From NCBI GenBank assembly GCA_002633005.1, contig NMRA01000110.1, positions 754,079-818,078 on the forward strand: DNA of 64,000 bases, written 5' to 3'. A model generated the notes under the pieces. It saw only the letters and a program-made list of their open reading frames with translations. It ran no database searches and was not told the DNA's origin. A program made the position numbers and the translations under genes. This document shows positions 11,487 through 62,138 of the stretch, piece by piece (position 1 is the first letter of the stretch; the number at the start of each line of letters is the position of its first letter). Origin of the DNA: Phoronis australis. Taxonomy: Eukaryota; Animalia; Phoronida.

Positions 11487-11523
11487 TGGTGCCGAGAAAG
11501 CTTGAATTCAGTGTCGCGGCCAT
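11487..11523 (-). CDS. Predicted first coding micro-exon of NTase-TPR copy B (MAATLNSSFLGT, phase-1 donor)
   Basis: ATG plus 37 nt ending at donor GTAAAT. It joins in frame to the acceptor at 10728. The equivalent in copy D (49400-49436) differs by three synonymous changes and one non-synonymous change. Confidence 0.55.
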
Positions 11524-26800: not shown

Positions 26801-27097
26801 CTATAATCAGAAGCAAAATATGAGTACTTTGCGAGAAAAATCGTGTAGTTAATGATTTCCAACGAAATATGTGTTTTGAATTGGTCTAAAAATTTGACAC
26901 TGATATAGCATAAAGTATTATAGCTTTATTCACACTGAGTCTACAAAACTACAACACCAATCGATAACAAATCCAAAATACAAAGCAAGGCCCTCAAGTT
27001 CCGCTGAATGAAATTGTACCACGAAGGCATAATGCAGAGGTTAGAAAGCCCAGTGGGTCATTTGTGGAACACCATGATTCGTGAACCAAAAAAAAAA

Positions 27098-32500: not shown

Positions 32501-33829
32501 GTTTCAGTTACCTAATATGAAATAAATCCATGAAATAAATAAATAATTTTTTTTTCCAGAATCCATTCGGGGGTTCGGTCTGACGAGCAAAATCCTGGCT
32601 AATTAATAGTCATCTGCCCTGCACACCTCTTCCTTAACTCAAAATCCTGGATCCGACCAGGTTTTTCTCAAGTTAATTTTGAAGAAGAATTATTTATTTC
32701 CACGTTTCCCGCCAAATGATGTAATGGGTGGACACATCAGTTGTAATGGGGAACACAGCATATCAGAGGACGAGGACCTGACGATTTTGAGAGAGAACTG
32801 GGAAATTAGTATGCACTGAAGGAGAAGAGAGTGGATACGGGCATAACTCTCAAGCACTTGAAGAACATCAGACAATATTAGCTACACCTTATACGCATAG
32901 CTTCCTAATAACAATGAAACAGCAAGTGAAATCAGAACATCTTATATCTTTGTAATGCATATTTTTAAAGAATTTTACGTCTCACTTGTGTCTTGACTAT
33001 GAAACTACACTGAACTTGACAACTGCAGCTATACCATTCAAATACATGTACACATATGTTACCTCAAATGATTCATTTTCATCTACTGATCTAGTCATCC
33101 CGACAAGTGTGAGTCAGTTCATGAGTTCAATTCGCTTTTTAAGTTATTTCAACTTTAATCACCATTGCCGTTCATGCTAAAATTGGCCAATCGAGTATAG
33201 TATTGACTTAGAACCCTATTTGACTCGGGCGGCGTCATGTGCAATAAGACAATGTAATTGGCAATATCCTTTCACCCAAAGTACAGTATTCATGTTCTAC
33301 ATATGTACAAATTGTCTACCACGTTGGCTCTTACCTATTTGTATTAATATCACATCTGTAGTACGCCTATCCACTTCACTTTTTAATATTACTCAATCAT
33401 CAGTTTGCTATTTACAAAATTTAGCCTAAGTTAATGTAATTAAATTAGTAGTGGCATTTTCATGCCTACCCAAGTGTTTACCCCCCAGTGTTCATTGCTT
33501 TTGTCCAAGCTTACTTAATTACTTTTAGTCTATTCACACGCCTGTATATATTTATTTTTTCTGTTGTTAGATAAGCATGCTAAGTATGAACTGTATGAAT
33601 CTATTAGGTTTTAAGTACACACATAACTAATTACAATTGTCCGGGTGTCTGGAAAACAAAAATACCCCATTGCTTTTCGCCTATTACGCTCGACCTCACT
33701 TTTCTACTAGGAAAACGACCCCGAACTGCGCACTTACGTAATGTTTACTACGCAATTAAGAACTCACGTTGTGATATCAGAGTTATCATTGAGCAAAGCC
33801 TTTTGACTGCTGCGCACTGACATAACCAC

Positions 33830-36520
33830 ATTTAACTGGACTGAAATCAAATACTGAGCAAAAGTGACATAAATGTCACAGTCTCAACATTCACTCAGTC
33901 ACTCAACGACATACTAAATAATAATATCCCATCAACCATGAAAACAATAAAAAACAAGAACAAACCGTGGTTTAACAGTAACATTAAGTATGAAATAAAT
34001 AAAAGAAACAAACTGTACAAATCGTTCAGAAAATCAAATAACCCGTGCACGTTTAAGTGCTACAAAGAGCAGTGCAAGAGTGTGGAAAAACTAATTAAAA
34101 AGACGAAACAAGAGTACAACAATGTCGCCAAAAATTCAAAGGAATATTGGGATATAATAAACAAAATTCGAGGACAGGTAAAGCAATCTTCATAGCCCAC
34201 CATCCACTCAAAGGAATCCAACACTGAGGCGTCATCCAAAGCTGAAAAAGTAAGTCATTTTTAGAATACTTCACCGCCAAGAGTCACGTTGCGCCAACAA
34301 CAAGCTTTCCCGAATTCCCAAACAGAACATTACAACACCTCTCTGACATACAAGCCCAATCATCTGAAGTCCGAAAACTACCAGAAAATATTGACGAAAA
34401 CAAAAACGACGGTACCAATCTCATAACCAATAAAATGATCAAGCTAATAGCAAGAGAGCTTACAGTTCCTTTGACAACATTATATAACAAAATACTACAA
34501 TCTGGAAAATTTCCTTTGAACTGGAAACTTGGTGTTACGATACCAATACACAAAAAGAACTCCAAAACAGACATTGCCAACTATCGCCCCATAACTCTAC
34601 TTATACTTAACACCCTATCCAAAATTTTAGAAGAAATAATTTCTCAACACATGTTTGACCACCTCTCTTCACAAAACCTCATATATCGTCGCCAATTCGG
34701 ATTTATGAATGGTAACAGCACTGTGTCTCAACTTACATAAATTGTACACGACATCCACCTCCAGTTTGAGCAAGGGTACAACGTGAGATCCGTATTTTTA
34801 GACATTGCGTCAGCTTTTGATGTCGTTCCCCATGATCTGCTTCTACATAAATTACAATCTTACGGTTTTTCCGGAACTCTCTTCTCACTTTTAAAATCAT
34901 ATCTGGAATGTCGAACTTACAAAGTCCGAATAGAGGGTATCTTAGTCACGCTCATCAACGCCAGGTTTCGTAAATGCTGGTGTACCACAGGGTAGCGTAC
35001 TAGTCCCCTTACTCTTTTTATTGTACATCAATGATCTTCCAGACACAACAAACCCTAAAACATTCTTATATGCTGATGGCACTGCAATTTTCTACCCATT
35101 CTCAAAAGAGAATCCCCATGACTCATTACAATTGCAAACTGACCTAAACAAACTCTATGACTGGTCTTGAAAATGGATGATGAAATTTAAACCTGAAAAA
35201 GTGTTGATCTTACATTTTCTAAGTCTGATAATACTCAATTTCAAACAAATCCAATGCTGGAATTATCACTCATTGGGGAAGTTATTCCCAATAAGTTCAA
35301 ACACAAACACCTTGGATTGCTACTAGACCACAAGCTTACATTTACTCCTCACTGTCGTGAACTCGTTCACAAAGTACAAAAATTAATCAATCCAATTAGA
35401 ATTGTTGCTCGTCACCTCAACTCCATGCATCTTGAAACTCTGTTCAAGTCTTTTTTTCTTCCACATCTAGATTACTGTGACATTATCTACCAATCGGCAA
35501 ACGCTGGCATACTTCAATTATATAGAAAGACTACAATACCAAGCAGTTTTAGCCATAACAGGAGCATACAAAGGATCCAACACAATCAAGGTTCTAAACA
35601 GTCTCAACTGGAGCAAACTAGCAACCCGTCGTAAACTCCACTTGTCCATGTATGCATTCAAAATCTTAACCAACAAAAACAATTACTCATACAGAATCCT
35701 CTTTGACTCCTGCAAAAAACCTAACAAGAGACCAGGACTGCGGCAAAGTAATATGCACACCATTCCATCTTCCCTCAGCCAGGCCTTTAGGAAATCTACC
35801 ATATTAACTTGTATTGACAATTGGAATTCCTTACCATCCAAAATAAAAGAAAGCACTTCAATCGTCACTCTAAAAAATAACTTTGCCAGTCCCATTGACA
35901 TCGTTCCAACTTCCTCGCATCCACGAAATAATCCTATACAGATCAAGATGCGGCCTATTCCTAAACAACGAGAAATTTAGACATAATTTTAATAATATTT
36001 CGCCTCTGTGTTGCTGTGTAGATGCGCAGACAAATGCTCACGTTTTCTTTGCTTGTGAGGTATGCAAGGAGCAGAGGGTACAGTTTTTCCAGACACTCGA
36101 ACAATACCCCAATATTTATAAAAAATATTCTGAAATTCCTCAAGTGTACAACAAAATTAATTTTTTTCTGTATGGAAATCAAGAACTCAACCCAAATGAA
36201 AATAAGGTTTTATTCGTAATAGTATCAAAATTTCTTTATAATATTAAATCTCTTTGTGTGAGTGGATAGAATTGTACAAATGTATATGAAAATGATTTAT
36301 TTACTTTCGTAATCATATGTCATTGTAATCTTAACAGTTTTTTTAATTTATATATTTGTGTAAAATAATTGTATACAGATTTCTTTTTTATGTATTTGTG
36401 CAAAATAGTTATATATAGATTTCTTTGTACTTTTGTAACCCAGATATAATGCCTCTTGGCGCTTTCTGGGTTAGTGTATATTTATTGTATCGAAGATTTC
36501 GTAATAAACTTTATAAAAAA
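33830..36520 (+). mobile_element. 5'-truncated LINE (CR1/L2-like group) with broken RT ORF
   Basis: [55 protein letters not shown], and a C-terminal C-x-C..H..C motif. A-rich end at ~36515. Confidence 0.92.
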
Positions 36521-37099
36521 AGAATCAGACAATGAATTCAATTTCCCACGTAGGGAACTTTCGGCGACTTTCAGGCCACCGGCCCATACGGTATGAGCTC
36601 GACCCACTAGCACAAGAAATGCTGCAGACACTTGGGTATGGTGTAATTAGTTGAAATGCATGTTCTACTTCATCTACCTAATTTTACCTACCCGTTACTT
36701 AGGGAATTCCCGCAAGTGGTGTAACGAATAGTGGGAATATTTGAATAAGTGGCAATGCGTGTTTGGAGTCTCTAAAATTTGTGAGCCAGTTGATGATGTC
36801 ATGTACGTTATCTTCCAGCCCACAGGTGGCGCAGTGATTAGTGGAAATAGTTGAATTAGTTGAAGTGAGCGTTTTGTGTCTCTGAAGTTAAGAACCTGTT
36901 GCTGACGTCTTCGTCCATATATGGAGCATACGTAGCTTGTCATATTTGAATTTGCTTGGAACTTAACGCTGACTTCTTACCTGGGTATGAAGTCACCATT
37001 TCATCTTTCATTGCGCTACAGGCTTTAGCACCTCCTAGTGCCAGTATTTATAAGAGTAAGAAAAAAGTAACATGGCCCGGGGGCGTTGCAATTAGTTGA

Positions 37100-38930
37100 A
37101 CTACAGCTTCCTATTAATCTATTAGTAGGTCCCTACCAAAGATCTGCACTTGAAGACTACCAAAGCGAGACACTTTCGAATTATGTTAAAGAGCAAGTTT
37201 TCAAACGCGTCTTATTTGTAGGTCCCTATCTCCTTCGGCGTCAAAGCGTAAGGTCAAAGTCACAGACTTCCCAAAATTTCCAAATTTGATCCTCCGCTGC
37301 TATCTTATTAGGCTCGCCGGAAGAGTTGACTCACGCATTTGGAGTGAGTAAGTAAAGGGCTATTCTACAAAGAAAGAAGTTTTGAAATCGGAATAAAAAA
37401 TTTAGGCGCGAAAAAGTCTAAGAATGACGTTTTTCAAATTTGATCTTGCCGCGTAACCTTTAATAATCCGATCGAACTCAAACTTGGTGGACTGTAATTT
37501 CTCACACTCTACGTCCATCTGAAAAAGAATTTTTGAAATTGGAGACAAGAAACTTTTTGGCCCCCAAAAAACCCTGTAGGCTTTTTCGGTAGAAAAAAAT
37601 TGTCTTTGATTTTAAAGTTTCAGTTTTTATTTGAAAAGCCAATAATCTTTTAAATGGTCAATCCCCAAGTTTCAGCATGATCGACCTACTAATTAAAGTC
37701 ACTGTGGCACATCAAAGTGACTCACCCAAGGGTCCTTTTTGGAACCAAAATTATTTGTTTTCCATTTCAAAAATTCTTTAAGCACCTGATAGCCCCCTGT
37801 CTCTCCCCCCTAGAAATGTAAATGTCATACTTTTCCTGGCCTTAGTAAGGCCGGCCAGAAGGGCTCCAAAGTGACCTACCTTATCACAATATCAGAAAAG
37901 TTTGTCAAAATGGCGAGACATTTTCGAATTATGCTAAAATGCAATTTTTCAAACGGGTCTTATGTGTGAGCCCCTATCTCATTCGGAGTCAAGGTAAAAA
38001 ATTGTCTTTGATTTTAAAGTTTTTGTTTTATATGAAAAGCCAATCTTTTAAATGGTCCGGCAGTACCCAAGTTTCAGCTTGATCGGCTCACTTATTAAGG
38101 TAACAGTGGCCCAACATGTGACTCACCGAAGGGTCCTTTTTGGAACCAAAATTATTTTGTTTTTGATTTCAAAAATTCTTTATGCACCTAATAGCCCTCT
38201 GTCTCTCCTCTCTAGAAATGTAAGTATCGTACTTTTCCCAGGCTTAGTAAGGGCCTGTGAGGGCCCCAAATCGAACCTCCCCCTGTTCAAAATATCAGAA
38301 AATTTGTTTAAAAAATTAGCTATAGTTTGGGAAGTCATATCCTCATGACCTATGACCTTAAGACTACCAAAGCGAGACATTTTCGAAAGATGAGGTGAAG
38401 TGCAAGTTTTCAAACGCGTCTTATGTGAAGGCCCCTATCTCATTAGGAGTAAAGGTTTAAGGACAAAGTCACAGACTCCCCCCAATTTTCCAAATTTGTT
38501 TCACCGCTTTTACCTTATAAGGGCTCGCCAGAAGTGACAACTAACGCATTTGGAGTGAGTACGTAAAGGGCTATCCAAAAAGAAAGAATTTAGGTGCGAA
38601 GAGGTTTGAAAATGACGTTAATCAACTTTGATCTTGCAGCGTGACCTTATTAATAATCCGATCGAACTCAAACTTGGTGGGCTTTAGTTTCTCAGCACTC
38701 TACATCCATCTGAAAAAGAATTTTTGAAATTAGAGAGAATTTTTTTGGCCTCTAAAAAAACCACGGACTGTAGGCTTAGGGTTTTTTTCGATCGAAAAAC
38801 TTTTTGTCTTTGATTTTAAAGTTTCAGGTTTTATTTGAAAAGCCAATCTTTTAAATGGCCAGTACCCAAGTTTCAGCTTCATCGGCCCACTATTCAAGGT
38901 CACAGTGGCCGACTAAGTGACACACCGGTT
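37100..38930. repeat. Complex internally repetitive non-coding element made of diverged modules
   Basis: Modules such as AAGACTACCAAAGCGAGACA..AAACGCGTCTTAT and TTGTCTTTGATTTTAAAGTTT..CCAAGTTTCAGC recur two or three times. The whole block is duplicated at ~60940-63530. Confidence 0.75.
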
Positions 38931-39862
38931 AAATGGGCCAGATGCGTATTCTACCCGCAAACCAGCGAATGTCGTCTCGTGCAGCTACTAACTAGCACGG
39001 CGGAGCAAAGCATCAGTCGTCGAAGGTAATAACTAACAGGGGGCAATGAGGAACACCAAGAGGTGGGCAAAAATTCAGTTTCGATGAATTTGCAAATCGT
39101 CCAGCAAGAACTTGACTCCGGCATTTTAGTACACAATTATCACCCAAGAAAGTGTTCACGGCAACGCTAGCATACTTTTTGAAAATTTGGTCGGAGTGTT
39201 GGTGAGGTTGCGCACAGCTAGATGAGTACTTATGTCAATGGACGCACGGACACACGACACACCTACTACATCGCCTTCAACATATCCACAGAATAACAGT
39301 AGTTTTGACGCTCTCGAGAGCGAAGTTAAAACTAGTTCTTTCAGTGTAAATTTTCATTCCAACGAACATCAACATTTCATCGATACGGAGCCTTTGTGTA
39401 GGTGGGACCTTCAGGTAAAACGAACTACCTCAGTGGGTACATGCCCCGACTGAGGCCAGTGGCCTGTTCCGTGTATTTGCATAGCTCTGTGGACAGGCGT
39501 GGGCATTCGGGATACAAACAACAATAGGAATAATTAATTTGTTCATTTTTAGAAACCATATTCACTCCATAAATATTGGGGTTCGGTATAAAACACATGC
39601 AACAATGGAATTTACAAAATAACCTCGTAACATTTAACCACAAACTTTTGTGAAACAGACAGAAATGGCATAAACAAACTATGGCCATTCCGTCAAAAAG
39701 ACAAAACTGCCTCGCATATTTACATTACTGAGTTAAACAATGAGGTTCCTCTTCACAATGCACAAACTAAACCATGAGGACGAATACAGAAAAAGTGCTT
39801 CTAAATGAATTTTAGGCCCACGTTGTGGCTGAGTAGCAATTGTTACAGGTCATTAAAATAAA

Positions 39863-44509: not shown

Positions 44510-44675
44510 TGAACCTTCAAAGCGAGCTTGACATCCTATGAAGCAGTGTTTGACCCATCGGTAGAGTACCATGACAATATCGGATTCGCGTAGATTAAGC
44601 GGTACAAGAAATCACAGGATACAGTTGCAAAGTACAATTTTTCATACTGCCGGTCCAGGTCGTTGTCACTAATCT

Positions 44676-45261
44676 TTGGTGGGCCGTTCAGGAGAAAGTG
44701 TCGCCGTAAAATTACGCTCGTAATTACGAGCGTAAATTAAATTGAAGGAGTGTCGCCGTACGATTACGCTCGAAAATTAAATGGGGAAAAGTTTCGCCGT
44801 AAAATGACGCTCGTAATTACAAGCGTAAATTAAATTGCAAAAGTATTGCAGTAAAATTACGCCCGTAAATTAAAAGGGAGATATGTCGCAGTAAATTACG
44901 CTCGTAAAATACTTTAAGAACGTTCCAACTTTAAACCAATCAGTGTTAACCTAACATAAACGACTGTTGCTGGGCAGCTCGTTCTTGCACAGTCGCTGAC
45001 ATTGCAGCGATTTGATCCGCCATAATTCAACGCTCGTAGCGTACTAGTAGACATGTAACCCGTCGGTAAATAAGTATTTACATGGGCGCGTGCGACCGTG
45101 AGTTGTAAGAGTTAAACTAAATTACGAGCGTAATTTTACGCCGTAAAGAATTAAAATACGCTCGTAATTTTACAGCGTAATGAACGGTGTAAATAACGGC
45201 GCAATGTAAATAATTACTCTCGTATTTTTCCGGCGACACTTTCCCCCCCAACGCCCATCAT
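44676..45261. mobile_element. 586-bp MITE with TTACGCTCGTAA/TTACGAGCGTAA subterminal arrays
   Basis: Imperfect TIRs (TGGGCCGTT..GAAAGTGTCGCCG) and an 8-bp TSD ACTAATCT/ACTTATCT. The empty site ACTGATCT is present at the paralogous position ~26638. Confidence 0.85.
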
Positions 45262-45546
45262 ACTTATCTTAGCCCTACGTCGGAGTCATTCGTCCAGTAT
45301 GTAAACACTTAGGTCACATATCACATGAGAACAAAGAGTATTGCTGCAAAGAAATTGACGAAGGCAGAAAAAAATTCTTTAAGAGAATAAAGCTACTATA
45401 ACAAAAAACTTTGCGATATAGAAAAAATAGTGTAATTAATGATTTCCAACGACAAATGTGTTTGACTTGGTCTGAAAATTTGACACTGACATAGCATAAA
45501 GTATTAGAGTTTCTGAGTTCCGAATCGCCGGATTTGTAAATTAGAG

Positions 45547-48500
45547 TTATTGTACTGAATAAGTCAAGTCAATTTCGAAATCGCATATGATGAAAGTGAA
45601 TCTGTATCTATGAACAATGAGTGATACGAGGTAAAAAATGGCGAAGATGTTGAAAACAGAGATCAAGATTGCAAATCGCGCCAAATAAGTCATGTAGCAG
45701 TAACAACGTTTCCTACAAAGATACATGACGGACACTGCGATGGTTATAACAGAACACAGAAGCATAGACAAACACACTGCGGTAAGCTCAACACTATACC
45801 TAAGATTGTCGATTTCTTCTCCTTTGTGTCGGACAAACTTTTTGATCATAGAAAATGTAGTAGATAAATAAATATATCTTTGTCCGAGTTCAGAATTTTC
45901 GGGTTCGTAAATTAGCGCATTAAACATGTAGTGTAACGCTAAATCATATCTCTTCGTAATAATGTAAGATGATGTTATGCCACTAAAAATTACTTTTTTA
46001 CACTCAGATATATTTAAACAGTATTGCACCATATCAAGAGCTATGAAAAAATATTGCAAGGACAGATTGAACTTGCCTGTGACGTAGTCGGCATATGCAA
46101 CGCGGATGTATTTTGTCACAACGCTGTTTTCAAGTGAAAGTTTCTTCTCCAGTTCTGAACCAAACTCTTGGAACTGTGTCGCTATGATGTCTGCTTGACA
46201 ATCCTTTGCAGCACTGATGAACTTTGAAAGTTTTATAGAATAGTCTATTGTATTCGAGCGTATTAATTTCCTAGCGGACATACTGTTTTTGTCGTTTAGT
46301 TTATTAAGTGTTAATTTAATTGACTTCAGTAAATACATTCGAGCAGCATCGTAATTCCTTTCTCTTGAGTGAATCAGGTGGATGATATCTAATGTAATCC
46401 GAACGAGATGGACACTATCATAATCATTACCCAGAATGCACGGGTATAATGTATCAAGTGACCAATGAAGATATCTCAATATAGTAATGTTTCTTCCTCT
46501 TCCTTTTGTAAAACCGATCTCATACAGCATCTGTGTTAGGTCTGTACCAAGAGTTGGGCAAATCGCTTGTAACAATGGCAAAAGAATATCAAAATGCCGC
46601 GCTGCTTTCTCGAAGTCATTGCTATGATACATGTAGTTAAGGAGCGTGTACTGAGCGTCAATTACGGCACCAACAGGTGTTTTCTCACCAGTTGGTCTGG
46701 GGAACAAATAACCTAACATTCTCGTTTCTTGTAACAGTTGCCGATAATCTCTTTCCCTAAACGTTGATCGCGATTCAAGGAACTGGTATCCGTATACCAG
46801 ATGTTGTGTATTGAAAACATTCAACATTTCTTTTATTTGCAGAACCCTCGACGAAAGATCCTTAAAAAGCTCCAGGTAACCCAGAGATCTACTTGCCTCG
46901 CACAAGTTCACCAAACACGACATAGTGTACGGATCAGTGGCGTCATAGAAAATTTGTTTTCCTTTGTAGTAAAAGCTTCCACAGAACACCCCACACTCCT
47001 GCTTTAAAGTTTTGGCGGCCCATGTGTTTTCTAGATGTCGGACTAGCTTGTTAAGAGCATTTTTGAATGACAGTGATCGTATTTCTATTAAACCTTCTAT
47101 GTATTGGTTGCAGGTATAGAAACGCTCAAAAGTACAAACGGGACTATAAATAGAAAATTCGTGCAGTATGCAGTTGACGAAAGGGACGACTGTACAGAAA
47201 TATCTAAAGAGCAGCAATTTGCTTTCTTGAACGGACGACACCTTTTCTGGTCGAGGCCAGATGTCCTGTGATTTCACGATCATGAGTTCATTTTGCTGCG
47301 ACATGTTGGTGTACATTACAAGCCGTAAGTGTGTTACTATGGATATTGCGACTCTTAGATTATGTCCGGATTGTTCTGCCATAATTCTCTCTATGACCAT
47401 TTCATCCAAAATTTCCCACGGAGTATTGCTATTTAGAGAGTAAACGGTTTTAAACAAATTGATTACGAGGCTGGGTAACCTGTACATCCCTTGTTTAATG
47501 TCGAAGACATCCCCATCACCAACGAAACACAGGTGTGGTAAATATCTTTTCACCACCTTCGTCATGTCATGGTGAGCCTTAGACCTCGCTGCTTTCAGTT
47601 TCGTTTGTTTTCGTCTGTTGGATTTAAATTCTTCAATCAGTCTATCCGCCCCGTGGCTCCCGCCAATTTTGACTATTGATGTTAATATGCGATCAATATC
47701 ATAACCTTCCTTCAGAGATGTATTATATTCACAAAGTTGTGCCATACGTTGAGGTGTTCTAATTAACTCGATTCCTTTCCTCATTGGTCTATCAGGACGA
47801 CCAAGCGGTGTGTGGCAGGCATGTGGCGCTGTGCTATCGAACTGGAAACCGCGGGGAGTTACTGTATCTTTGAACCAGTCTCCTCCGGGTTTGTCGTTGT
47901 CGTTCAATGATTTGATTTGCATCGATTTCAAAATAGTTTCTCTTAAATTCAAAACAAATAAATGAACCATTCCCACTAAATTCCTAAAATATTCAATGTT
48001 GTTTTCATCTTCAACCAGTATGCACCACTCAATGTCGGAATACGTTGTCGTTTCACCTCTAGCCAGAGAACCTAACCCTAAAACTGCAAACTGTTGAGGA
48101 GGTGTTCCCAGTATCCTTATTGATGTAAAAATCAAACTCCAGAAAAAGGTTCTCACCTTTTGACTAACGTCTTCGAACAATTGCCTTGTCTCACGAACGT
48201 ATTCTTTTTCAATGTCTATTCGCTCGTTGTCTGACAGATTTGCACTAAATTTAGCCTGAATTTCATGCATCAACACGTTCGCGCTGCGAGACGTCGTCTC
48301 TCTAATATTAGTTAGATGATATCGAACTTTGGAAATGTAATTTAAAGGTGTTTTTTCACATTTTAGAAACAGCATCTCGCAAAAGGCAACTTCATTTCTT
48401 TTTACGACCTCTTTGATTTTTTCAGTGGCCTTTGATCGCTTGGTTCGCAAAATAGCGGCATTGTAGAGCGCAGATGCTTTAATGAAATCGCCACGGAGCT

Positions 48501-48641
48501 TTGTCAACGTACCCCTCTCTGCATAAATATCGCCCATTTTTTTCAACAGCCAACTGTCTCTTTCCAAATCATCTCTCGATCCATTTAACAGAGTCTCGGC
48601 AAGGAGTTCTTCTTTCTTCGCCAGGGCTGTCAGTCGCTTCT
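45547..48641 (-). CDS. NTase-TPR paralog D main exon (intact): TPR-like N-terminus, GlnD/DUF294-type nucleotidyltransferase, helical partner domain, TPR-like C-terminal region, two C-terminal hydrophobic helices
   Basis: Uninterrupted 1006-aa ORF, open to the acceptor at 48642-48643. Motif GLGSLARGETTTYSDIE and downstream GFQFD. Hydrophobic segments LTAVCLSMLLCSVITIAVSVMYL and FAILISVFNIFAIFYLVSLIV. About 1043 aa with the predicted exon 1. Confidence 0.92.
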
Positions 48642-49160
48642 CTACAAAATGTTGTCAGTCCATCAATAGATAGCTTGCACAAAAGTTTGTTTCAAATCAA
48701 ATTAAAAATTCCCAAGAAAATAATTTCACACCTTTTAGTCGACGCAATGATTCCTCTAGTCCACTGACTTTTAATCCAATTTGTACACCAACACAAAATA
48801 CGTCTGCAATCTTTTCATGCGATAAAAGAAAATAATTCTATCTCTGAGCAGATTAGTATGGTGACCATTATTGCTGTAAATCAACACAGTAATTTTAAAT
48901 TTTCAACATTTGTTTACAAAACACGGTGCCCGTATGTTTCAAAATTCTCTATGCACGACGTCATTCTCAATCATATACAATTATTCGCTCTTGTTTAAGT
49001 TAATCATCACAGTGGTATCCCGACTCACAACTACGGCATTTGCCAATTTGAGTGTGAAAGTTGCTTTGGCAATGCCTTCCTGGTGTTATGCATGTCGCCC
49101 ATGCGAGATATGAAACATCCATGGGGCCATCCGGAACGCCTGTGGTAGCTTCGCAGCATC

Positions 49161-49233
49161 CTGGATGGTTCCGCACGTGCCTAGCCAGCACTCGTGCGGG
49201 CTATCACCTAGCGGCATGCAAGGAACCAGCGAG
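49161..49233. mobile_element. 73-bp mini-MITE at the same position as 11248-11320 in the intron of copy D
   Basis: Same sequence and flanks as in copy B. Confidence 0.65.
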
Positions 49234-49399
49234 CTTAGCATCATCCCTCATCTGAAGTATCACAGGTATTTTTGTAGTCTCAAATTTCTGTGCATGTGCG
49301 AATTTCACCCATGCGGTAAATAATGAGACGGACAAATAGGAGACTAATGGGCCGGATGACTGAAATTCGCGCGTAGGCTAGGTTTCAGATGGTACTTAC

Positions 49400-49436
49400 T
49401 GGTGTCGAGAAAGCTGGAATTTAGTGTCGCAGCCAT
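49400..49436 (-). CDS. Predicted first coding micro-exon of copy D (MAATLNSSFLDT, phase-1 donor GTAAGT)
   Basis: Consensus donor, in-frame join A|AG to the main exon, and conservation with 11487-11523. Confidence 0.6.
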
Positions 49437-52329
49437 AGCATAGGGCCACTACAAGTTTAATATTTCAAACTGAAGCTCTCTTTCTTAAGAAACGAAACGG
49501 TTTGTTCAGAAATTTTCTTCTCAGCTCATGGAAATTATCAGCAACTCATTATCTGTAACCTCTCGTTGAGATGAAGGTGAGAAAGTTATAGATGATGTCA
49601 CCACGGCAGCGACATAACAACAAGCCAGGGAAAGGTACATAGAGCAGAGAGCTCTCCTTTGCCAAATTGACAGTGAGGCCATTTGTAATTCGTTAAGGTG
49701 TTTGCTCTGTTTATAAAATACACTACTAACAGTCCTGATTTTTGAATGTTGAGAAAAAAATCAATAACTATATCGATTGTATTGATTTTCAACTATAAGA
49801 CAGTAATCAGATCTGCGTTGACAAAATGAAGCCATAAATATGTCCAAAAAACTATCACCCCGAAACAAAAGAGCAAACTTATCATCTCGGAGAATCCTAC
49901 ACGAGTTTCAGGTTTATGACTTGCGCAAAACCTCTTGGAAATTTCGTCAAAATCCAGAGTGTAGGATTTGTTTTCTCACATGAACCCTTTTTGATTCACA
50001 TTCAGCAAGACATCGAAAAGATTTTGGTTTTGAAAGGGTGCTCAATCTTTCTTCTTTGCGTCAGTGTAAAATGAACACGATTCTTTTGTCTGAAAATGTT
50101 CTTAAAGTTTAGTTGGAAGAAAGCAGTTTTTTCCAAAATCCTAATTCTACCGGGGTCGAACTAGAGTACATTAACACTGTCAGATATAATTTTTGTTTTT
50201 AAGTTTTCTACACGCATTTATTTAATATTTCGAACTCCAAATAAATTTCGAATTCTAAGAGTTGACCATTTTTGAAGGAGTTCGTAGAAACGATTTTTTA
50301 TATTCAACATAATAAAAGTAAAATGTTGTCTTTTGACATATCTAAGTAAAAATCAATTGTCAACCTATAAAAGTATAAATTCCCAGAAACCATGAGTCGA
50401 GGCAAATCTATTCAAGCCATTCTGGTCCCCATGTGGCCATGTGTTACAAATTTCGTTTTTACAAATGTCGTTTTTAGAAATGTGCATTGATAAGGAAAAA
50501 GTCGTTTCAAAACTAAACTTCTCTTATCAAATTTTTAATAAAATTGCTCGAAACTGGCCTGGGATTTTTCGTAACTTTCACCGATGTTTTTCTTAATCAC
50601 CAAGAAACGTTCAGCCTTGACGAACACTTCTTACAAGTTCAACTAGACGGACGAGTCAAGTTAATAAATTATAGGAAGCAGAGTACCATTAACAGAGCGG
50701 AACGCAAACTCACTGGTCTCTCAGCAAGTAAGATTTTAAAATCTAAACACTACATTAAATACAGCATTGGCGAAAATTTACTAGTTATTGCTTGAAGTCA
50801 TTAAAGGGACGTTTTTAACATCCTCTCTGTAAAATATGTTCCTATTAAGGCCCTTAAGACTATACATTTGAAGCTGTGACAATGTCCGGGTTTCAGTACC
50901 CTTAGCAATAACAATTACATTTTAGCTACGGCTGCCCCTTCGTAGGTCACCACTTGTCCGAGGAGCCCCTTTAGCGACGAAAGCGGATCTCAATTTTCAT
51001 TGCGCTTGATTGCCACGACTATTCAATTACGTCTAAGACTGCTCGGTGACGACGAGACGAGGTCTTTTTTTCGTGAAAGGCTCTACTAAGCTGGAACATT
51101 TTACATTAACGGATTGCCCATCCCCCGGCCCCCACAAAATTCTAAATAGCCTCTGTGGGAACATGATGGGGTCTCTAATCAACTTAACATGGCTAATTCG
51201 GCACTAATTTAGTCAAGACTAAGATTTTACCCGATTCGTCCATTGAAACAGAACATGGCGAAATCACATTTTCGGTCTACTCGGAAGTATCGTTTACGAC
51301 GTTGAACTGCCGGTCAGGCAAATCACAATCAAGGTCCATATTCGGTGGCCACTTTTGGTGAAAAATAAAGTTTGTCATAAAACACTAAAAGATGGGTTTT
51401 TAATGTACCATCATTCCTGGTTTATAATCTAAAATATTTGTGCACAAGAACCACCAAATAAAATTTTATGGCCCAATGCCTCACAGTTGTATAAAAGGGT
51501 ACGCACACTACAACTTGTGGTCACAGCCCACTTCTATCATGCAAAAATTCATAAGGTAGATTTAATTTAATGACTTCTTAATCAAATTGAAGAAGAATCA
51601 CATACTAAAGTAAAAAAAATTATTACTGTGCTAATTAAGTTGTTCCAGATGATGATACATTGCATATCTTAACATATTATAATAAGAACTTTTTCTCTTG
51701 CAATACGATTCTTACAAAAAGAAAATGACAAGTAACTCGTTTTTTCAAAAACTTTATTGGTGGTATTTGCCTAGTTTTCAATATATTCGCAAGTTGGTCA
51801 AAATAGTTAAAGCAATGCAAGGCCCAGTGTTCAACTGGTAAACAGTAAAAAATGGTTCTGGTTGTTGGGTACGTACACGACGTAATTACGCACAGTCAAT
51901 CAACATCAAATTTTGACTAAGTTACAAATATATAGTGCTGGCGAACTATACATTTATTCACATAAAATTTAAAAACTCCTATTTTAGTAAAACATGCCAA
52001 AATCGGCAAACCTATTACTTTCTGTTTGCACGCCACCCTGGCGTTTACTTGTGTTACTAAAACGTAAAAAAAATTATTTTCCGAATACATACCCATAGCC
52101 TTATCTACGGAAAATCCGGGTAAAAGCGAAGAATATGTCCCTTTGATATGGCTTTCTGACGTGTTCATACACTAATTTTGAGAGTAGGTGTCGTAAAAAG
52201 AGAGTGTACTTGAAATCGCTAGAACCTAATGCACTTGGAATGTGCGTGGCCTTTAGATTTTGACGAAATTTCGCCCATGTAAACAATGTGAGATTCATTT
52301 AGGATTCTCTATATGAACAACTAGAGCAT

Positions 52330-53700
52330 ATGTACAATATTTACAACAATGATTATGCAACACAGATGCATAATAGAGATTTAAGACCTGACATCTGGTA
52401 CAAAGTTGACAGTCACATTCAGTGAGGAGACGTAAGGCATGATCAGCTGAGACATAATACCTAAGCGTCCGTGCTTAATCTAATGTAGTTAGGTAAGCTA
52501 TTCCAAAACAATGCTCCCTGGCAGGAAATGAAATTATAACCATAGGAAAAGGTGTGGACAGTTAACATGTTTTCCGAGTGAAAACTGTAGTGTTACTGTA
52601 TTGACACGAATTTGTGAGACAGTGTCCATTTTGTGAAACATGTTTAAACCCTTTAATTGACAGAGATTTGAGCCCTGCAACTGACAAGGGGAAGTGAGTC
52701 TGTCCTTAAAAATTCAAAGTGAGATGATCTAGAGTCATCAAATATACATCAAAGAGCACGATGTTGGATCTTTTCTATATTTTTGCTCATCTGTAAATTA
52801 CCGGTACCAATCAATGACAAGTAATAAAAACATGAGCTTACAAAAGCATGGCATAAGTTTAATTTGCTGTCATTGTCTAGTAGATGTCGAAGTCTGAAAA
52901 GCTGATTTACTTGGCTGGAGACCATCTGACAGACAATATTCACATGGTTATATAATTTAAGATGACGGTAAAGATGAAGCCCAAGTAGTTTGACCGAATT
53001 CACATTTAATTCTCAATCAACAACCAGTAAAAAGTTTTCAGCATCATTTAACATGCCCTTTTTGGAAAAGGTAATGGACTTTTAAGTGAGTAAACACTGT
53101 TCACTGTTTGCTGCCATATTGTTTGCTGTAAATCAACGAGTGGCCACACGAAATGAGCACACAGATTTTGTCTTGTATTATTTAAAGAGATACTGATATC
53201 AAGAATAGTGTTAGCCTCAACATAGTTATACATAGAAGAGGTTATTTATAAAATATTAAATAACATAGACCCCAGGACAGACCCTTGGGGAACCCCTTTA
53301 GAGAACTCGGACCATAATGTGATTGAGCATCCTATATCGACCCTCGTGTCTATTTGCTAAATAAGATTTTAAAAATGAGCATACATTATCGGAACAACCA
53401 TAACCTCTGAGAATAGCAATCAATAAAGTATATGAGGTACAGTCAAACGATTTGGACTGATCGATTAACATACAGCCTGCTATGTGACTTCTGTCCAAGG
53501 CCACAGTTGACTAAACAGAATGATGTCAAAGTGAAGTTTCAACTATGCTTTTTAAATATCTGGTTAACAGTGAGCAATAGAATTGAACTGGCCTGTAACA
53601 TATTTTGTGCAATTTATCACCTTTTTGAAAACTGGGCTAACTTGGCTTTTCTTAATTCGGGATTAAGGGGTAGACAGAAGAACTCAACTACTTGTTGAAG
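52330..53700 (-). mobile_element. Duplicate of the decayed minus-strand LINE fragment
   Basis: [20 protein letters not shown] (~53271-53296), VKLLGLHL..L, IEKIQHRAL. Confidence 0.8.
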
Positions 53701-54492
53701 TAGGAGTGAAGGACTTGCTTAAACCCTAGAGTAGAAATGGACAATAGTCTGTCGTAGGATTCAGTGTGCTGTTAACACACACGGGAAAACGGTTCTGGTA
53801 GAAAATGTGCTCCCTGCGTCGTAGATAATACATCACAACACGTTTCTTGCTGATAGCAGTTCGTAAATCAGACGCTGGGATTGCCCAACCGGTCATGCAA
53901 AGCAGTATGGGTCATATTTTGGAGTTCACTAAGGGAATAGCGTATGTGCGTTATTGAATAAGCTAAATTTAATGGATGTTCTCGGGCCTAAAATATTATT
54001 CAGTATAGAGGGGTGCCATGTAGTGCACACAAAAATAAAAAATTAATTACAGGTTAGTTCGATAGTCCGAACGGAGGAGAGTCCGAATGAAATTCTCCCG
54101 GCCGACAGCGTTTAATAATCTGACGGGCACTGAACTTTGGCGACGGCACGTCGACTCACATATAAATTACCATTTTAACAACTGAATTTCTTGATTTTTG
54201 AAGTTTGCTATGTATCCAACATATGAGAATACATAAATGCGAACGTGGAAAAGTATAGTTTTGCTGAAGGCGGGAGTGACTGAAGTAGCCTACCAAAATA
54301 GAAATCGCTAACTTCAGAATGACAGTTTCTGCGAAAGAAAGTCTTCTAAGAGTTTTGAAATTACCCAATTTTTACCAAATTCCATCACTGATAAGTACAC
54401 AATGTTTTTTGCGGTATTGTGCGTACATTAGAAGATACGTCTGCATTCGGAATTATGTGTTAGCGCCTATACGCGAACGAAATGAGTAAACC

Positions 54493-55082
54493 CTCGCTGG
54501 TTCCCTGCGTGCCGCTAGGTGGGGCGGTAGCCCCGCCAGCACGCAGGTATCACTTAAATTTCCTCTGTAAATTTTTTTACACCGGCTTTTCTGATTGGCT
54601 AGTCGAATTCTCAACAGGCAGCGCTTTGCGCAAACAAACTGGCATGAGTGATGGACTGAAGTGTAAATGTGGTCTGTTGTACAGACAAATCGGTGCTTAA
54701 AATTATGTTCAGGAAATGTGAAGCCTAGAAATTGTGATTGAGCCTTTTTGGAATGCATCTTTCTCACTGTCGATGACTTTTGTTTACGATATTGTCCTTA
54801 TACAGTATGGATAACACACCGGTTAAATAGGCCACATAATATGTGTTTATTGTGCATGTATGTGCTTCAAGCACGCGGCTATTAAACATCACTGCAGAAA
54901 CGAAATAGTTGCTGCGACGCCACTTGCATGACAAGGCTAAAAATCGTTCACATCCGCCATTTTTTTTACGGTGTTGTAAAGCTAGCCAATGACTGCCAAG
55001 ATTACATCGACTAATGCTAAAGCGCGTGCCACTGCGTGATACCTGCGTTCTGGCTGGGCTAAGCACGCAGGGAACCAGCGAG
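54493..55082. mobile_element. 590-bp MITE with perfect 20-bp TIRs and a 10-bp TSD (Mutator-like by TSD length)
   Basis: CTCGCTGGTTCCCTGCGTGC ... GCACGCAGGGAACCAGCGAG, flanked on both sides by TGAGTAAACC. Confidence 0.9.
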
Positions 55083-57659
55083 TGAGTAAACCATGTTTCA
55101 AATTGGTGATCTGGCGCATCCCGTCATTTAAAAAAATATACACTGATATTCGGCTCGCGTAATGTGTTGGAAGATTCTTGCCAATGTGGATAAAGGCTCG
55201 CTCGGTACGCCTGTCCTTTGGTGCGTGTGTACATGCACGTACGTGTTTGCACATTAGTTTACATCCAGATCGAACACTTAAGTTTTCTTTTTAGATGAAA
55301 TTTGGAGGCTTTACTTAACACCTATTGAAAATTTCAAAAATTGCACCCCGAAAAAGTGCCCATACAGAAGAAGAAATTTGCGTGAGAATGATTTTAGACG
55401 GCTTTTAGTGACTTTTAAGAAAAATTTGCTCGTGACGTCAGACTTTAAACTCAATCGTGCACTTTTACCCAACAAGTTGAACTAAAAAGGTGGAAACGCA
55501 CAATTCATTTATTTAGTCGACCGACTATTTTGTTAGTAAAAGGTCCACATCGCCAGGAATTCTAGCCCTCCATATTGAAGGCTGGGTGCGCGAATGCTCT
55601 GAATGGTTTTAATTTAGAATGTAGGAACTTAACTGAGAAACTGTAGAACTAATATAAACATGCCGTTTCAGCCCGAGAGAGGGCATCAGAATTCACTACG
55701 GAATTAATATACCACGTAAAGTGACGGCTGGATATAAGAGACAAGAGGCGCTGCGGAGAAGATAAGGCAGTGAACTTATGTTGTCTGCCACACCTAGAAA
55801 CCAGGCATTCGCTGAAATCTACTGGCCAGAGTGTCTAACAACTATCCGTACCGGTACTTAACATGACATTATGACTGAGATGAAAGCAGACAATGAGGGA
55901 GCTAGACTATGTAAAAATTTGATGTTGTCAAACTGATAACGACACGGCTCCCCACTGGCCGACCAGTCAATCGAGATACTTATTCACCGGTGAAATCGGC
56001 CAGAAGTGTAAGCATTGTACGTGCTTCAAGCACGCATAACTTCAGAAACGCCCGAGCGCTGTCACGCCACTGACAAGGCTAAAAACCGTTCATAGTGCGC
56101 CATTTTCTTTCTTTGTTGTGAAGCTAACCAATGATCGACTGCCTGGGTTATATCAACCAATGACAGTTTTCGTTATATCAACCAGTGATAAAACGGCGTG
56201 TGCTACTGAGTGTTCGGCACGTAGGGAACCACTAGCTAATCGAGCTGACAGTTCATGATGACTGCACAACCTGCCAAGGTGTTTTTTCTATTCATATGCT
56301 TTAAAGAGTTCCCACCATATATGTTCTTAGTTTTTGAGGTTTCAGTTACCTAATATGAAATAAATCCATAAAATAAATAAATAAATAAAAATTCCACAAT
56401 CCATTCGGGGGTTCGGTCTGACGAGCAAAATCCTGGCTAATAAATAGTCATATGCCCTGCACACCTCTTCCTTAACTCAAAATCCTGGATCCGACCAGGT
56501 TTTTCTCAAGTTAATTTTGAAGAAGAATTACTTATTTCCAAGTTTCCCGCCAAATGATGTAATAGGTGGAGACATCAGGTGTAATGGGGAACACAGCATA
56601 TCAGAGGACGAGGACCTGACGATTTTGAGCGAGAACTGGGAAATTAGTATGCACTGAAAGAGAAGAGAGTGGATACGGGCATAACTCTGAAGCACTTGAA
56701 TAATATCAGACAATATTAGCTACACCTTATGCGCATAGCTTCCTAATAACAATGAAACAGCAAGTGAAATCAGAACATCTTATATCTTAGTAATGCATAT
56801 TTTTAAGGAATTTTACGTCTCACTATGAAACTACATTGAACTTGACAACTGCAGCTATACCATTCAAATACATTGTACACATGTGTTACCTCAAATGATT
56901 AATTTTCATCTACTGATCTAATCATCCCAACAAGTGTGAGTCAGTTCATGAGTTCAATTCGCTTTTTAAGTTGTTTCAACTTTAATCACCATTGACGTTC
57001 AAGCTAAAATTGGCCAATCGAGTATAGTATTGGCTTAGAGCCCTATTTGACTCGGGCGGCGTCATGTGCAATAATACCAATGTAATTGGCAATATCCTTT
57101 CATCCCAAAGTACAGTATTCATGTTCTACATAATAATGCACAAATTGTCTACCACGTTGGCTCATACCTATTTGTATTAATCTCACATCTGTAGTACGCC
57201 TATCCACTTCACTTTTTAATGTTACTCAATCATCAGTTTTCTATTTACAAAATTTAGCCTAAGTTAATGTAATTAAATTAGTAGTGGCATTTTCACGCCT
57301 ACCCTAGTGTTTACCCCCCTAGTGTTCATTGCTTTTGCCCAAGCTTACTTAATTACTTTTAGTCTATTCACACGCCTGTATATATTTATTTTTTCTGTTG
57401 TTAGATAAGCATGCTAAGTATGAACTGTATGAATTTATTAGGCTTTAACTACACACAGAATAATTACAATTGTCCGGGTGTCTGGAAAACAAAAATACCC
57501 CATTGCTTTTCGCCTATCACGCTCGACCTCACTTTTCTACTAGGAAAACGACCCCGAACTGCGCACTTACGTAATGTTTACTACACAATGAAGAACTCAC
57601 GTTGTGATATCAGAGTTGTCATTGAGCAAAGCCTTTTGGCTGCTGCGCACTGACATATT

Positions 57660-60365
57660 CACATTTAACTGGACTGAAATCAAATACTGAGCAAAAGTGA
57701 CATAAATGTCACAATCTCAACATTCACTCAGTCACTCTACGACATACTAAATAATAATATCCCATCAACCATGAAAACAATAAAAAACAAGAACAAACCG
57801 TGGTTTAACAAAAACATTAAGTATGAAATAAATAAAAGAAACAAACTGTACAAATCGTTCAGAAAATCAAATAACCCCTGCACGTTTAAGTGCTACAAAG
57901 AACAGTGCAAGAGTGTAGAAAAACTAATCAAAAAGACGAAACAAGACTATAAGATGAAAATTATCTCCAACTTCAACAATGTCGCCAAAAATCCAAAGGA
58001 ATATTGAGATATAATAAACAAAATTCGAGGACAGGTAAAGCAATCTTCATAGCCCACCATCCACTCAAAGGAATCCAACACTGAGGCGTCATCCAAAGCG
58101 GAAAAAGTAAGTTATTTTTAGAATACTTCACCGCCAAGAGTCACCCTGCGCCAACAACAAGCTTTCCCGAATTCCCAAACAGAACATTAGAACACCTCTC
58201 TGACATACAAGCCCAACCATCTGAAGTCCGAAAACTACTAGAAAATATTGACGAAAACAAAAAAGACGGTACCAATCTCATAACCAATAAAATGATTGAG
58301 ATAATAGCAAGAGAGCTTACAGTTCCTTTGACAACATTATATAAAAAATACTACAATCTGGAAAATTTCCTTTGAACTGGAAACTTGGTGTTACGATACC
58401 AATACACAAAAAGAACTCCAAAACAGACATTGCCAACTATCGCCCCATAACTCTACTTAACACCCTATCCAAAATTTTAGAAGAAATAATTTCTCAACAC
58501 ATGTTTGACCACCTCTCTTCACAAAACCTCATATATCGTAGCCAATTCGGATTTATGAATGGTAACAGCACTGTGTCTCAACTTACAGAAATTGTACACG
58601 AAATCGGCACCTCCAGTTTGAGCAAGGATACAACGTGAGATCCGTATTCTTAGACATTGCGTCAGCTTTTGATGTCGTTCCCCATGACCTGCTTCTACAT
58701 AAATTACAAACTTACGGTTTCTCAGGCACTCCCCTATTACTTTTAAAATCATATCTGGAAAATCGAACTTACAAAGTCCGAATAGAGGGTGTCTTAGTCA
58801 CGCTCATCAACGCCAGGTTTCGTAAATGCTGGAGTACCACAGGGTAGCGTACTAGGCCCCTTACTCTTTTTATTGTACATCAATGATCTTCCAGACACAA
58901 CAAACCCTAAAACATTCTTATATGCTGATGACACTACAATTTTCCATCCATTCTCAAAAGAGAATCCCCATGACTCATTACAATTGGAAACTGACCTAAA
59001 CAAACTCTATGACTGGTCTTGAAAATGGATGATGAAATTTAAACCTGAAAAAAGTGTTGATCTTACATTTTCTAAGTCTGATAATACTCAATTTTAAACA
59101 AATCCAATGCTGGAATACTCATTGGGGAAGATATTCCCAATAAGTTCAAACACAAACACCTTGGATTGCTACTAGACCACAAGCTTACATTTACTCCTCA
59201 CTGTCGTGAACTCGTTCACAAAGTACAAAAATTAATCAATCCAATTAGAATTGTCTCTCGTCGTCTCAACTCCATGCATCTTAAAACTCTGTTCAAGTCT
59301 TTTGTTCTTCCACATCTAGATTACTGTGACATAATCTACCAATCGGCAAACGCTGGCATACTTCTTCAATTAGAAAGACTACAATACCAAGCAGCTTTAG
59401 CCATAACAGGAGCATACAAAGGGTCCAACACAATCAAAGTTCTAAACAGTCTCAACTGGAGCAAACTAGCAACCCGTCGTCAACTCCACTTGTCCATGTA
59501 TACATTCAAAATCTTAACCAACATAAACAATTACTCATACAAAATCCTCTTTGATTCCTGCAAAAGACCTAACAAGAGACCAGGACTGCGGCAAAGTAAT
59601 ATGCACACTATTCCATCTTTCCTCAACCAGGCCTTCAGGAAATCTACCATATTAACTTGTATTGACAACTTGAATTCCTTACCATCCAAAATAAAAGAAA
59701 GCACTTCAATCGTCACTCTAGAAAATACTACTACTCAAGAGTTGCCAGTCCCATTGACATCGTTCCAACTTCCTCGCAACCATGAAATAATCCTATACAG
59801 ATCAAGATGCGGTCTATTTCTAAACAACGAGAAATTTAGACATAATTTTGATAATATTTCGCCTCTGTGTTGCTGTGGAGATGCGCAGACAAATGCTCAT
59901 GTTTTCTGTGCTTGTGAGGTATGCAAGGAGCAGAGATTACAGTTTTTCCAGACACTCGAACAATACCCAAATATATATAAAAAATATTCTGAAATTCCTC
60001 AAGTGTACAACAAAATTAATTTTTTCTATATGGAAGCCAAGAACTCAACCCAAATGAAAATAAGGTTTTATTCGAAATATCAAAATTTCTTTATAATATT
60101 AAATCTATTTGTGTGAGTGGATAGAATTGTACAAATGTGTATGAAAATGATTTATTTACTTTCGTAATCATATGTCATTGTAATCTTAACAGTTTTTTAA
60201 TTTATGTATTTGTGTAAAATAATTGTATACAGATTTCTTTTTTATGTATTTGTGTAAACTAATTAAATATAGATTTCTTTGTACTTTTTTAACCCAGATA
60301 TAATGCCTCTTGGCGCTTTCTGGGTTATGTATATTTATTGTATCAAAGATTTCGTAATAAACTTC
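57660..60365 (+). mobile_element. Duplicate of the plus-strand LINE
   Basis: [27 protein letters not shown] and ORF 59166..60116. It shares its 5' truncation point and some lesions with 33830-36520. Confidence 0.92.
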
Positions 60366-62138
60366 AGACAATGAATTCAATTTCCCACTTAGGGAACTTT
60401 CGGCGACTTTCAGGCCGCCGGCTCATACGGTATGAGCTCGACCCACTAGCACAAGAAATGCTGCAGACACTTGGGTATGGTTGCATTAGTTGAAATGCGT
60501 GATCTACTTGATCTACCGAATTTTACCTACCCGTTACTTAGTGAATTCCCGCAAGTGGTGTAACGAATAGTGGGAATATTTGAATAAGTGGCAATGCGTG
60601 TTTGGAGTCTCTAAAATTGTCAGCCAGTTGATGATGTCTTGTACGTTATCTTCCAGCCCGCAGGTGGCGCAGTGATTAGTGGAAATAGTTGAATTAGTTG
60701 AAGTGAGTGTTTTGTGTCTCTGAAGTTGAGAAGCTGTTGCTGACGTCTTCGTCCGTATGTGGAGCAGACGTAGCTTGTCATATTTGAATTTGCTTGGAAC
60801 TTAACGCTGACTTCTTACCTGCGTATGAAGTCACCATTTCATCTTTCATTGCGCTACAGGCTTTAGCACCTCCTAGTGCCAGTATTTATAAGAGTAAGAA
60901 AAAAGTAACATGGCCGGGGGGCGTTGCAATTAGTTGAACTGCAGCTTCCTGTTAATCTATTAGTAGGTCCCTACCAAAGATCTGCACTTGAAGACTACCA
61001 AAGCGAGATATTTTCGAATTATGTTAAAGAGCAATTTTTCAAACGCGTCTTATTTGTAGGTCCCTATCTCCTTCGGCGTCAAAGCGTAAGGTCAAAGTCA
61101 CAGACTTCCCCAAATTTCCAAATTTGATCCTCCGCTGCTACCTTATTAGGCTCGCCGGAAGAGTCGACTCACGCATTTGGAGTGAGTAAGTAAAGGGCTA
61201 TCCAACAAAGAGAGAAGTTTTGAAATCTGGATAAAAAATTTAGGCACGAAAAAGTCTAAAAATGACGTTTTTCAAATTTGATCTTGCCGCGTAACCTTTT
61301 TAATAATCCGATCGAACTAAAACTTGGTGGGCTGTAATTTCTCACACTCTACGTCCACCTGAAAAAGAATTTTTGAAATTGGAGACAAAAAACTTTTTGG
61401 CCCCCAAAAACCCTGTAGGCTTTTTCGGTAGAAAAAAATTGTCTTTGATTTTAAAGTTTCCGTTTTTATTTGAAAAGCCAATAATCTTTTAAATGGTCAG
61501 TCCCCAAGTTTCAGCTTGATTGACCTACTAATTAAAGTCACTGTGGCACACCAAAGTGACTCACCCAAGGGTCCTTTTTTGGAACCAAAATTATTTGTTT
61601 TCGATTTCAAAAATTCTTTAAGCATCTGATAGCCCCCTGTCTCTCCCCTCTAGAAATGTAAATGTCGTACTTTTCCTGGCCTTAGTAAGGCCGGCCAGAA
61701 GGGCTCCAAAGTGACCTACCTCATCACAATACCAGAAAAGTTGTGTCAAAATGTTAGCTATAGTTTGGGAAGTCATATTCTCATGACCAATGACCTGAAG
61801 ACTACCAAGGCGAGACATATTCGAATTATGCTAAAATGCAATTTTTCAAACGGGTCTTATTTGTAGGCCCCTATCTCTTTCGGAGTCAAAGGTAAAAATT
61901 GTCTTTGATTTTAAAGTTTCTGTTTCATATGAAAAGCCAATCTTTTAAATGGTCCGGCAGTACCCAAGTTTCAGCTTGATCGGCCACTAATTGAGGTAAC
62001 AGTGGCCCAACAAGTGACTCACCGAAGGGTCCTTAGTGGAACCAAAATTATTTTGTTTTTGATTTCAAAAATTCTTTATGCGCCTAATAGTCCCCTGTCT
62101 CTCCTCTCTAGAAATGTAAGTATCGTACTTTTCCCAGC

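Follow-up and report, generated by a model that had tools for sequence, protein, structure and literature searches.

The window analysed here, a 64,000-nucleotide stretch of Phoronis australis DNA with a GC content of 38%, is eukaryotic in content (a TRIM gene and LINE remnants) and carries four paralogs of one gene, all on the minus strand, which were located within it by tblastn and DNA alignment. The four copies are designated A to D:

140-1076, minus strand: copy A, a decayed, 5'-truncated fragment that matches residues ~407-735 of copy D
~7890-10730, minus strand: copy B, free of in-frame stops but with a single frameshift, which lies in TPR2 near 8736
~26945-29865, minus strand: copy C, a pseudogene
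45547 to ~48640, minus strand: copy D, the sole intact reading frame, with 1006 amino acids counted from the ORF call at 48567

Judged from the reading frames, A and C are pseudogenes, B is interrupted by one frameshift and only D is intact. Copy A has 10 non-triplet indels and six stops, while copy C has six frameshifts in its 5' half, four stops and an in-frame loss of 159 nt in its TPR part. Copy C also has a 71-nt tandem duplication at 28770-28906 that shifts the frame, and copy B has a second non-triplet gap where its alignable part ends. The frame of D stays open for ~27 codons further 5' of the ORF call at 48567. An in-frame Met-Asp-stop (ATG-GAC-TGA) is found at ~48640-48665 in D and at the matching position in the other two long copies, B and C, with a possible splice acceptor just downstream of it and an open homologous helix after it in all three copies. 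The shared ATG-GAC-TGA may be a uORF or an early stop common to the three, or it may belong to an upstream exon.

Several other elements share the window. A single-ORF TRIM gene (RING, B-box and NHL) lies on the plus strand at 18115-19905, between copies B and C, and an inverted repeat pair (6084-7306 and 20389-22257, 86-90% identical) encloses copy B together with the TRIM gene. Tandem arrays occur at 13253-13555 (60-nt units) and 4777-4953 (20-nt units). A decayed LINE at ~57600-60200, whose reverse-transcriptase-like frames are presumptive assignments from motifs, has a copy within 32497-37912 that was duplicated with the C/D unit at ~4% divergence, and further LINE pieces are found at 52700-53500 and 62100-62900.

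Along the protein encoded by copy D, the following features are distinguished, all on the minus strand:

48028-48072: catalytic motif G166-S167-x10-D178-x-E180, with no differences among D, B and C
47143-48531: DrrA/GlnE-like nucleotidyltransferase module with a helical (HEPN-like) C-terminal part, residues 13-475, from the model fold and DUF294
46924-47142: conserved linker, residues 476-548, consisting of helices and a beta hairpin that ends in DPYT (DSSP of the model)
46903-46931: divergence breakpoint, at M549, with which the first C-terminal TPR begins (position 1)
45826-46923: degenerate TPR solenoid, residues 549-914, with six hairpins and two insertions (DSSP)
45613-45780: two hydrophobic helices, residues 930-948 and 967-985, a predicted membrane anchor present in D only

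The AlphaFold model of D was built from 96 sequences and has a mean pLDDT of 77.9, mostly above 85 over residues 13-475 and with low confidence at 584-631 and 916-1006. The AMPylase domain of DrrA (6yx5) matches residues 13-475 with a Z score of 27.1 and an rmsd of 3.7 over 321 aligned residues, and GlnE domains (1v4a and 3k7d) match the model with a Z score of 20. Among Pfam profiles, DUF294 matches D above the cut-off (E 2e-5), SidM_N falls below its curated cut-off of 27 (20.6 bits for D and 24.6 for a fragment of C), and DUF294_C has no match on D. In relatives, the G, S and D of the catalytic motif are conserved in 95 of 95 sequences and the E in 93 of 95, and the motif of D fits the G-x11-D/E-x-D/E motif given for DrrA and GS-ATase in the available part of PMC8097203. 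Given this motif and the modelled NTase/HEPN-like fold, D is assigned to the GlnE/GlnD/DrrA-like nucleotidyltransferases of the pol-beta superfamily. AMPylases of the DrrA type move AMP from ATP onto Ser, Thr or Tyr of a protein, and their fold also houses UMPylases and deAMPylases. From the profile scores the domain is not classed as SidM, and at best it would act like DrrA. The conserved column pair in the HEPN-like part is R415 and Y419, the RNase motif being Rx4-6H; the GlnD/GlnE/DUF294_C family is listed as lacking the Rx4-6H motif in the accessible portion of PMC3710099.

The breakpoint was located for each pair of copies by a maximum-likelihood two-segment change point in D coordinates, with 200 permutations per pair. 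Divergence along the gene is not uniform: the change point falls at 46903-46931 in all six pairs among A-D, nucleotide difference rises in each of them from 9-18% before the breakpoint to 33-46% after it, and the log-likelihood ratios are 16-175 compared with at most 9.9 in permutations. The original prediction, that all four copies switch at the same place, therefore holds, with DPYT ending at 46924 in D and the breakpoint lying at the corresponding ~9008 in B, ~28097 in C and ~654 in A. It had also put the differences between B and D from ILG.PPQQF to EFKSNR at about 11 of ~167 residues, and the count is exactly 11 of 167. The conserved enzyme core that it described is real, but the conserved stretch is not the NTase core alone; it comprises all of residues 1-548, including ~230 residues past EFKSNR over which D-B identity is already down to 77-80%. 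Of the islands said to be kept in all four copies, LRYLHWS and RY.LA..Y.FNAL correspond to TPR helices of type B, but copy A ends before the GC and RY.LA islands.

Beyond the breakpoint the 3' halves are still alignable homologues with 54-67% nucleotide identity. A run of 15 nt at DPYT is identical in all four copies, but its length is within chance (P 0.71) and so provides no evidence for a recombination site; site-specific recombination at DPYT was rejected on this ground. An exon boundary at DPYT was rejected as well, since the frame of D continues uninterrupted across it and the coding sequences of the 3' halves are homologous. By the TPR consensus, the first repeat has M549 at position 1, and thus the breakpoint lies where the TPR array begins rather than where the enzyme domain ends.

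A TPR-like C-terminal region had been proposed from the sequence, and the hairpins that DSSP gives at 546-914 of the D model match TPR structures. The TPRs of RapH, KLC1 and LGN match the C-terminal half of D with Z scores of 15-16, of which ~13 is expected from a helical-repeat arrangement alone. All 10 matches listed in an Atlas feature search are TPR-named or have TPR families, with scores of ~0.9, which is treated as a lead. No Pfam TPR profile is above the cut-off on D, TPR_1 is below threshold on fragments of B and C (18 versus 27.8 bits), and residues 545-1006 of D have no sequence relatives at E values up to 10 among 4859 candidates. As modelled, the C-terminal half is a TPR solenoid with degenerate repeats. 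The tail that follows in D is open for 107 codons, a length reached in 32 of 20,000 shuffles. A C-terminal hydrophobic segment is found in none of 174 relatives, and the presence of the two hydrophobic helices in D suggests that the tail may allow the protein to act at a membrane. Homology of the D tail with that of C is not supported (alignment score 17 versus a shuffle mean of 19); the two tails do not align, though the DNA directly beyond them does. Copy C has one hydrophobic stretch just ahead of the shared 3' flank.

The family to which D belongs is large. At E values of 0.001 or lower, 1452 clusters match D, and among the best 150 of these the best-matching stretch ends by residue 538 in every case. 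TPRs are carried by 24 of the 26 relatives scanned from the best 150, and Roc-COR with Death or GT4-conflict domains by two. The amphioxus proteins P0026, P0028, P0049 and P0050 have either several matches to the NTase module per chain or fusions of Roc-COR with Death/GT4-conflict domains. GT4 and Roc-COR (AP-GTPase) domains are tied to counter-invader systems in the available text of PMC8195603. Nine of the ten relatives looked up are amphioxus proteins, the nearest named ones being at most 40% identical. Amphioxus has many paralogs of the family, and proteins of a soft coral and of Neochlamydia are matched as well. Similarity was compared among 12 of 15 similar unnamed relatives, three having been left out for a motif mismatch; in all 66 pairs similarity is higher in the core than in the TPR region (0.84 versus 0.64), which indicates that a conserved core with variable TPRs is found family-wide. 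No description of the family in animals was found in the open-access literature, and supplements, especially those of PMC3710099 and PMC8195603, could list it.

Selection was assessed with GY94 codon fits in custom code rather than PAML, using four copies, three of them broken, and a star tree. The dN/dS ratio (omega) rises at the breakpoint in all six pairs (equal-omega likelihood ratio test, P 4e-5 to 0.02), from 0.45-0.55 in the 5' half to 0.99-1.10 in the 3' half for pairs among B, C and D, and from 0.70-0.72 to 1.7-1.8 for pairs with A. Model M2a is preferred over M1a in the 3' half with P 1e-5 for D, B and C and P 1e-8 for all four copies, with the same outcome after trimming near gaps, while P is 0.19 in the 5' half. 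The 3' signal survives a null model with site-to-site rate variation (P 0.009-0.0003) and is present on a protein-guided alignment (P 2e-7). Within the TPRs, omega is 1.6-1.9 in helix A and 0.9 in helix B, and posterior probabilities exceed 0.9 at 14 of 95 helix A codons compared with two of 103 helix B codons.

Ligand contacts in TPRs are made by positions 2, 5, 6, 9, 12 and 13 according to the available part of PMC1261162. At the 36 groove codons predicted on this basis omega is 2.73 with four copies (P 1e-8), 2.17 with three and 1.93 with three on the protein-guided alignment, and it is about 1 at codons outside the groove. When the TPR register is shifted by 1-3, none of the six registers is significantly above 1. 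Amino-acid identity is 20% at groove positions and 37-50% in the other position classes. When dS is estimated only from these 36 codons, the P values weaken to 0.0075 for four copies, 0.058 for three and 0.17 for D-B. The registers come from DSSP and the consensus motif and were set after the list of fast sites had been seen. Fast sites fall at predicted concave positions, where the original prediction had suggested that variable sites be mapped, and the codon fits indicate that positive selection acts on the ligand-face positions of the TPR half.

It could be argued that domain constraint is sufficient, with purifying selection on the enzyme half, a TPR half that is relaxed and free of positive selection, and a jump in dS that is an artefact of heavy amino-acid change. 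Consistent with this account, mean 3' omega is ~1.0-1.1 and, among B, C and D, not different from 1 (P 0.6-0.97); the same drop from core to TPR occurs family-wide, both in the 66 pairs and in the best 150 clusters; and variability in TPRs is as a rule highest in the groove (PMC1261162, in the part available). Relaxation is unable to push omega above 1, however, and the groove reaches 1.9-2.7 in one register only. Synonymous divergence and conversion tracts, described next, also speak against constraint as the only factor, and this account is considered unlikely.

From the 5' to the 3' half, dS increases from 0.17 to 0.57 for D-B, from 0.22 to 0.50 for D-C and from 0.15 to 0.63 for B-C (P 6e-5 or lower). 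The jump in dS at the breakpoint that conversion of the 5' part predicts is thus present in the three pairs among B, C and D, but is not significant in the three pairs with A (P 0.09-0.56). Fourfold-degenerate sites give the jump weak support (P 0.03-0.11 for B/C/D pairs), and dS is already climbing over residues 411-548 in D-B and D-C. A model with equal dS is rejected for B, C and D and would itself require a 3' omega of 2.0-2.8, which runs counter to the account from constraint. Significant conversion tracts are present in the 5' half of two of the three pairs:

47006-47080 (D coordinates), minus strand: B-C conversion tract of 18 consecutive polymorphic sites, reached in none of 10,000 permutations, which ends just before the breakpoint
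48410-48507, minus strand: D-B conversion tract of 12 consecutive polymorphic sites (P 0.0014)

The genealogy of the 5' half is mosaic (chi-square P 4e-7), the closest pair being D-B up to residue 50 and at 251-318 and B-C at 481-548. None of nine pair tests revealed a tract in the 3' half, and shuffling of TPR pieces between copies was rejected on that basis.

Duplicated DNA extends beyond the genes, in three blocks to which no strand is assigned:

48645-50696 and 10732-12837: upstream non-coding DNA common to D and B, 8.8% mismatch
44544-45512 and 26520-26926: downstream flank common to D and C, 10-13% mismatch, with a MITE-like insert in D
51934-64000 and 30722-39397: far upstream blocks of D colinear with the upstream region of C, 4-7% mismatch, including a LINE

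The shared upstream DNA of B stops beside the tandem array at 13253-13555. The MITE-like element in the 3' flank of D, at 44677-45260, is bounded by imperfect terminal inverted repeats of 50 nt and contains internal repeats, and the matches on either side of it overlap by ~8 nt in C, which resembles a target-site duplication. In the 148 nt adjoining the start, C and D differ by 21%. The C/D flanks differ by 4-13% compared with a dS of 0.50 between the TPR halves of C and D, suggesting that the TPR half is an old island of accelerated divergence in a younger or homogenised duplication. This corresponds to the 'peak of divergence' under gene conversion described for opsins in the available part of PMC3924837. 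Positive selection and gene conversion of the 5' part had been offered as joint or alternative causes, and both appear to act, the first from groove omega and the second from the dS jump and the tracts. The pattern of a constant module joined to a diversifying one is supported, whereas 'catalytic' and 'recognition' are terms drawn from the fold and the motif.

The same flanks bear on a second alternative, in which unequal crossover at DPYT, in one or two events, joined old 3' halves that had long been diverging to a 5' half of recent spread, and selection had no special part. B and D share 2 kb of upstream DNA and no downstream flank, the 3' half of B is the most distant from all others, and the B-C tract ends near the breakpoint, all of which would fit such events. 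Against this, all six pairs switch at one place, including C-D in which both flanks are shared, and the pairs with A switch too, without a significant jump in dS. In addition, recombination predicts that omega does not differ between the concave and convex faces, which is rejected (P 3e-9), and the groove-specific omega goes unexplained. Recombination is probably part of the history of B, but as the whole account it is improbable. Pseudogene decay of the 3' halves, or a collapsed or chimeric assembly of similar 5' halves, is very unlikely even with three of four copies broken, since the 3' halves of B and D have no stops where ~11 and ~9, respectively, are expected under neutral decay, five of six 3' indel events in B and all eight in C are in frame, and the 5' halves differ by 9-12%, far beyond the level of collapse. 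The modelled TPR fold and a groove omega above 1 likewise speak against a C-terminal half that evolves neutrally with no conserved fold.

The pattern is probably best explained by a tandem cluster in which the similar 5' halves are mosaic, the TPR grooves are selected and kept from homogenisation, and copies are born and die. Selection would keep the grooves different, and conversion tracts that enter them would be removed. Divergence accumulated in the TPR half would then block further exchange, sharpening the edge at DPYT. In the turnover of copies D would be the living one, with B broken in the recent past and A and C already dead.

What such a cluster does is a separate matter. A role as an immune AMPylase is possible but tentative; the groove is predicted to bind proteins that are foreign or variable, with the DrrA-like domain adding a nucleotide either to the bound protein or to a signalling protein of the host. 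Copy D would modify its targets at a membrane via its tail, and an arms race with parasites or pathogens could drive diversification of what is likely a target-recognising nucleotidyltransferase. Somewhat more doubtful is the broader proposal that, in addition to Fic and SelO, marine invertebrates have a third, DrrA-like class of animal AMPylases, shared with chlamydial effectors and used as a diversifying immune arsenal, in which the groove would recognise pathogen proteins and the constant enzyme would AMPylate either these or a host switch, with D acting from its membrane anchor. If true, an overlooked invertebrate defence system would be represented by an animal gene family with a DrrA-type fold, intact catalytic residues and a binding face that bears the marks of an arms race. 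It can be approached through a single intact gene, a pair of catalytic residues and 36 positions that are candidates for specificity. For molecular evolution, the locus would offer a clean peak of divergence under gene conversion with its edge at the start of a domain.

Evolutionary patterns of this type are already known, and this one sits in an animal enzyme family of which no description was found in the open literature. With the AMPylase domain of Legionella DrrA/SidM (6yx5, 3nku; SidM_N), D shares the fold over residues 13-475 and the G-x11-D/E-x-D/E motif, but it is only 12% identical, is encoded by an animal and has TPRs next to the enzyme instead of the GEF and PI4P-binding domains of DrrA. 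GlnE and GlnD, which have DUF294 and DUF294_C in the accessible portion of PMC3710099, share the fold and DUF294 with D; D differs from them in being flanked by TPRs, in having tandem paralogs that are born and die, and in lacking a nitrogen-regulation context. A Neochlamydia protein is a direct sequence match (E 1e-29), and the Neochlamydia matches fit the NEX2 family as described in the available part of PMC4209131. NEX2 proteins, with an F-box/OTU-DUF294-TPR architecture, resemble D in having DUF294 followed by C-terminal TPRs and in forming an expanded family, whereas D is host-encoded and has degenerate TPRs and a hydrophobic tail. Pfam finds no F-box or OTU match in D, for which an upstream exon is possible.

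The TPR-DUF294-TPR proteins of amphioxus and soft coral, which UniRef names 'Protein-PII uridylyltransferase N-terminal domain-containing protein', have the same architecture and core motifs as D, with 29-40% identity over the best stretch for amphioxus. Their TPRs are canonical and have no sequence match to residues 545-1006 of D, whose TPRs are degenerate. In plant NLR-LRR clusters, homogenised flanks and a constant domain occur together with a binding surface that is under selection and divergent. The opsin peak of divergence has the same combination in the available part of PMC3924837. Unlike in the opsins and the plant NLR-LRR genes, the constant part here is an enzyme for which protein modification is predicted, and the variable part consists of TPRs.
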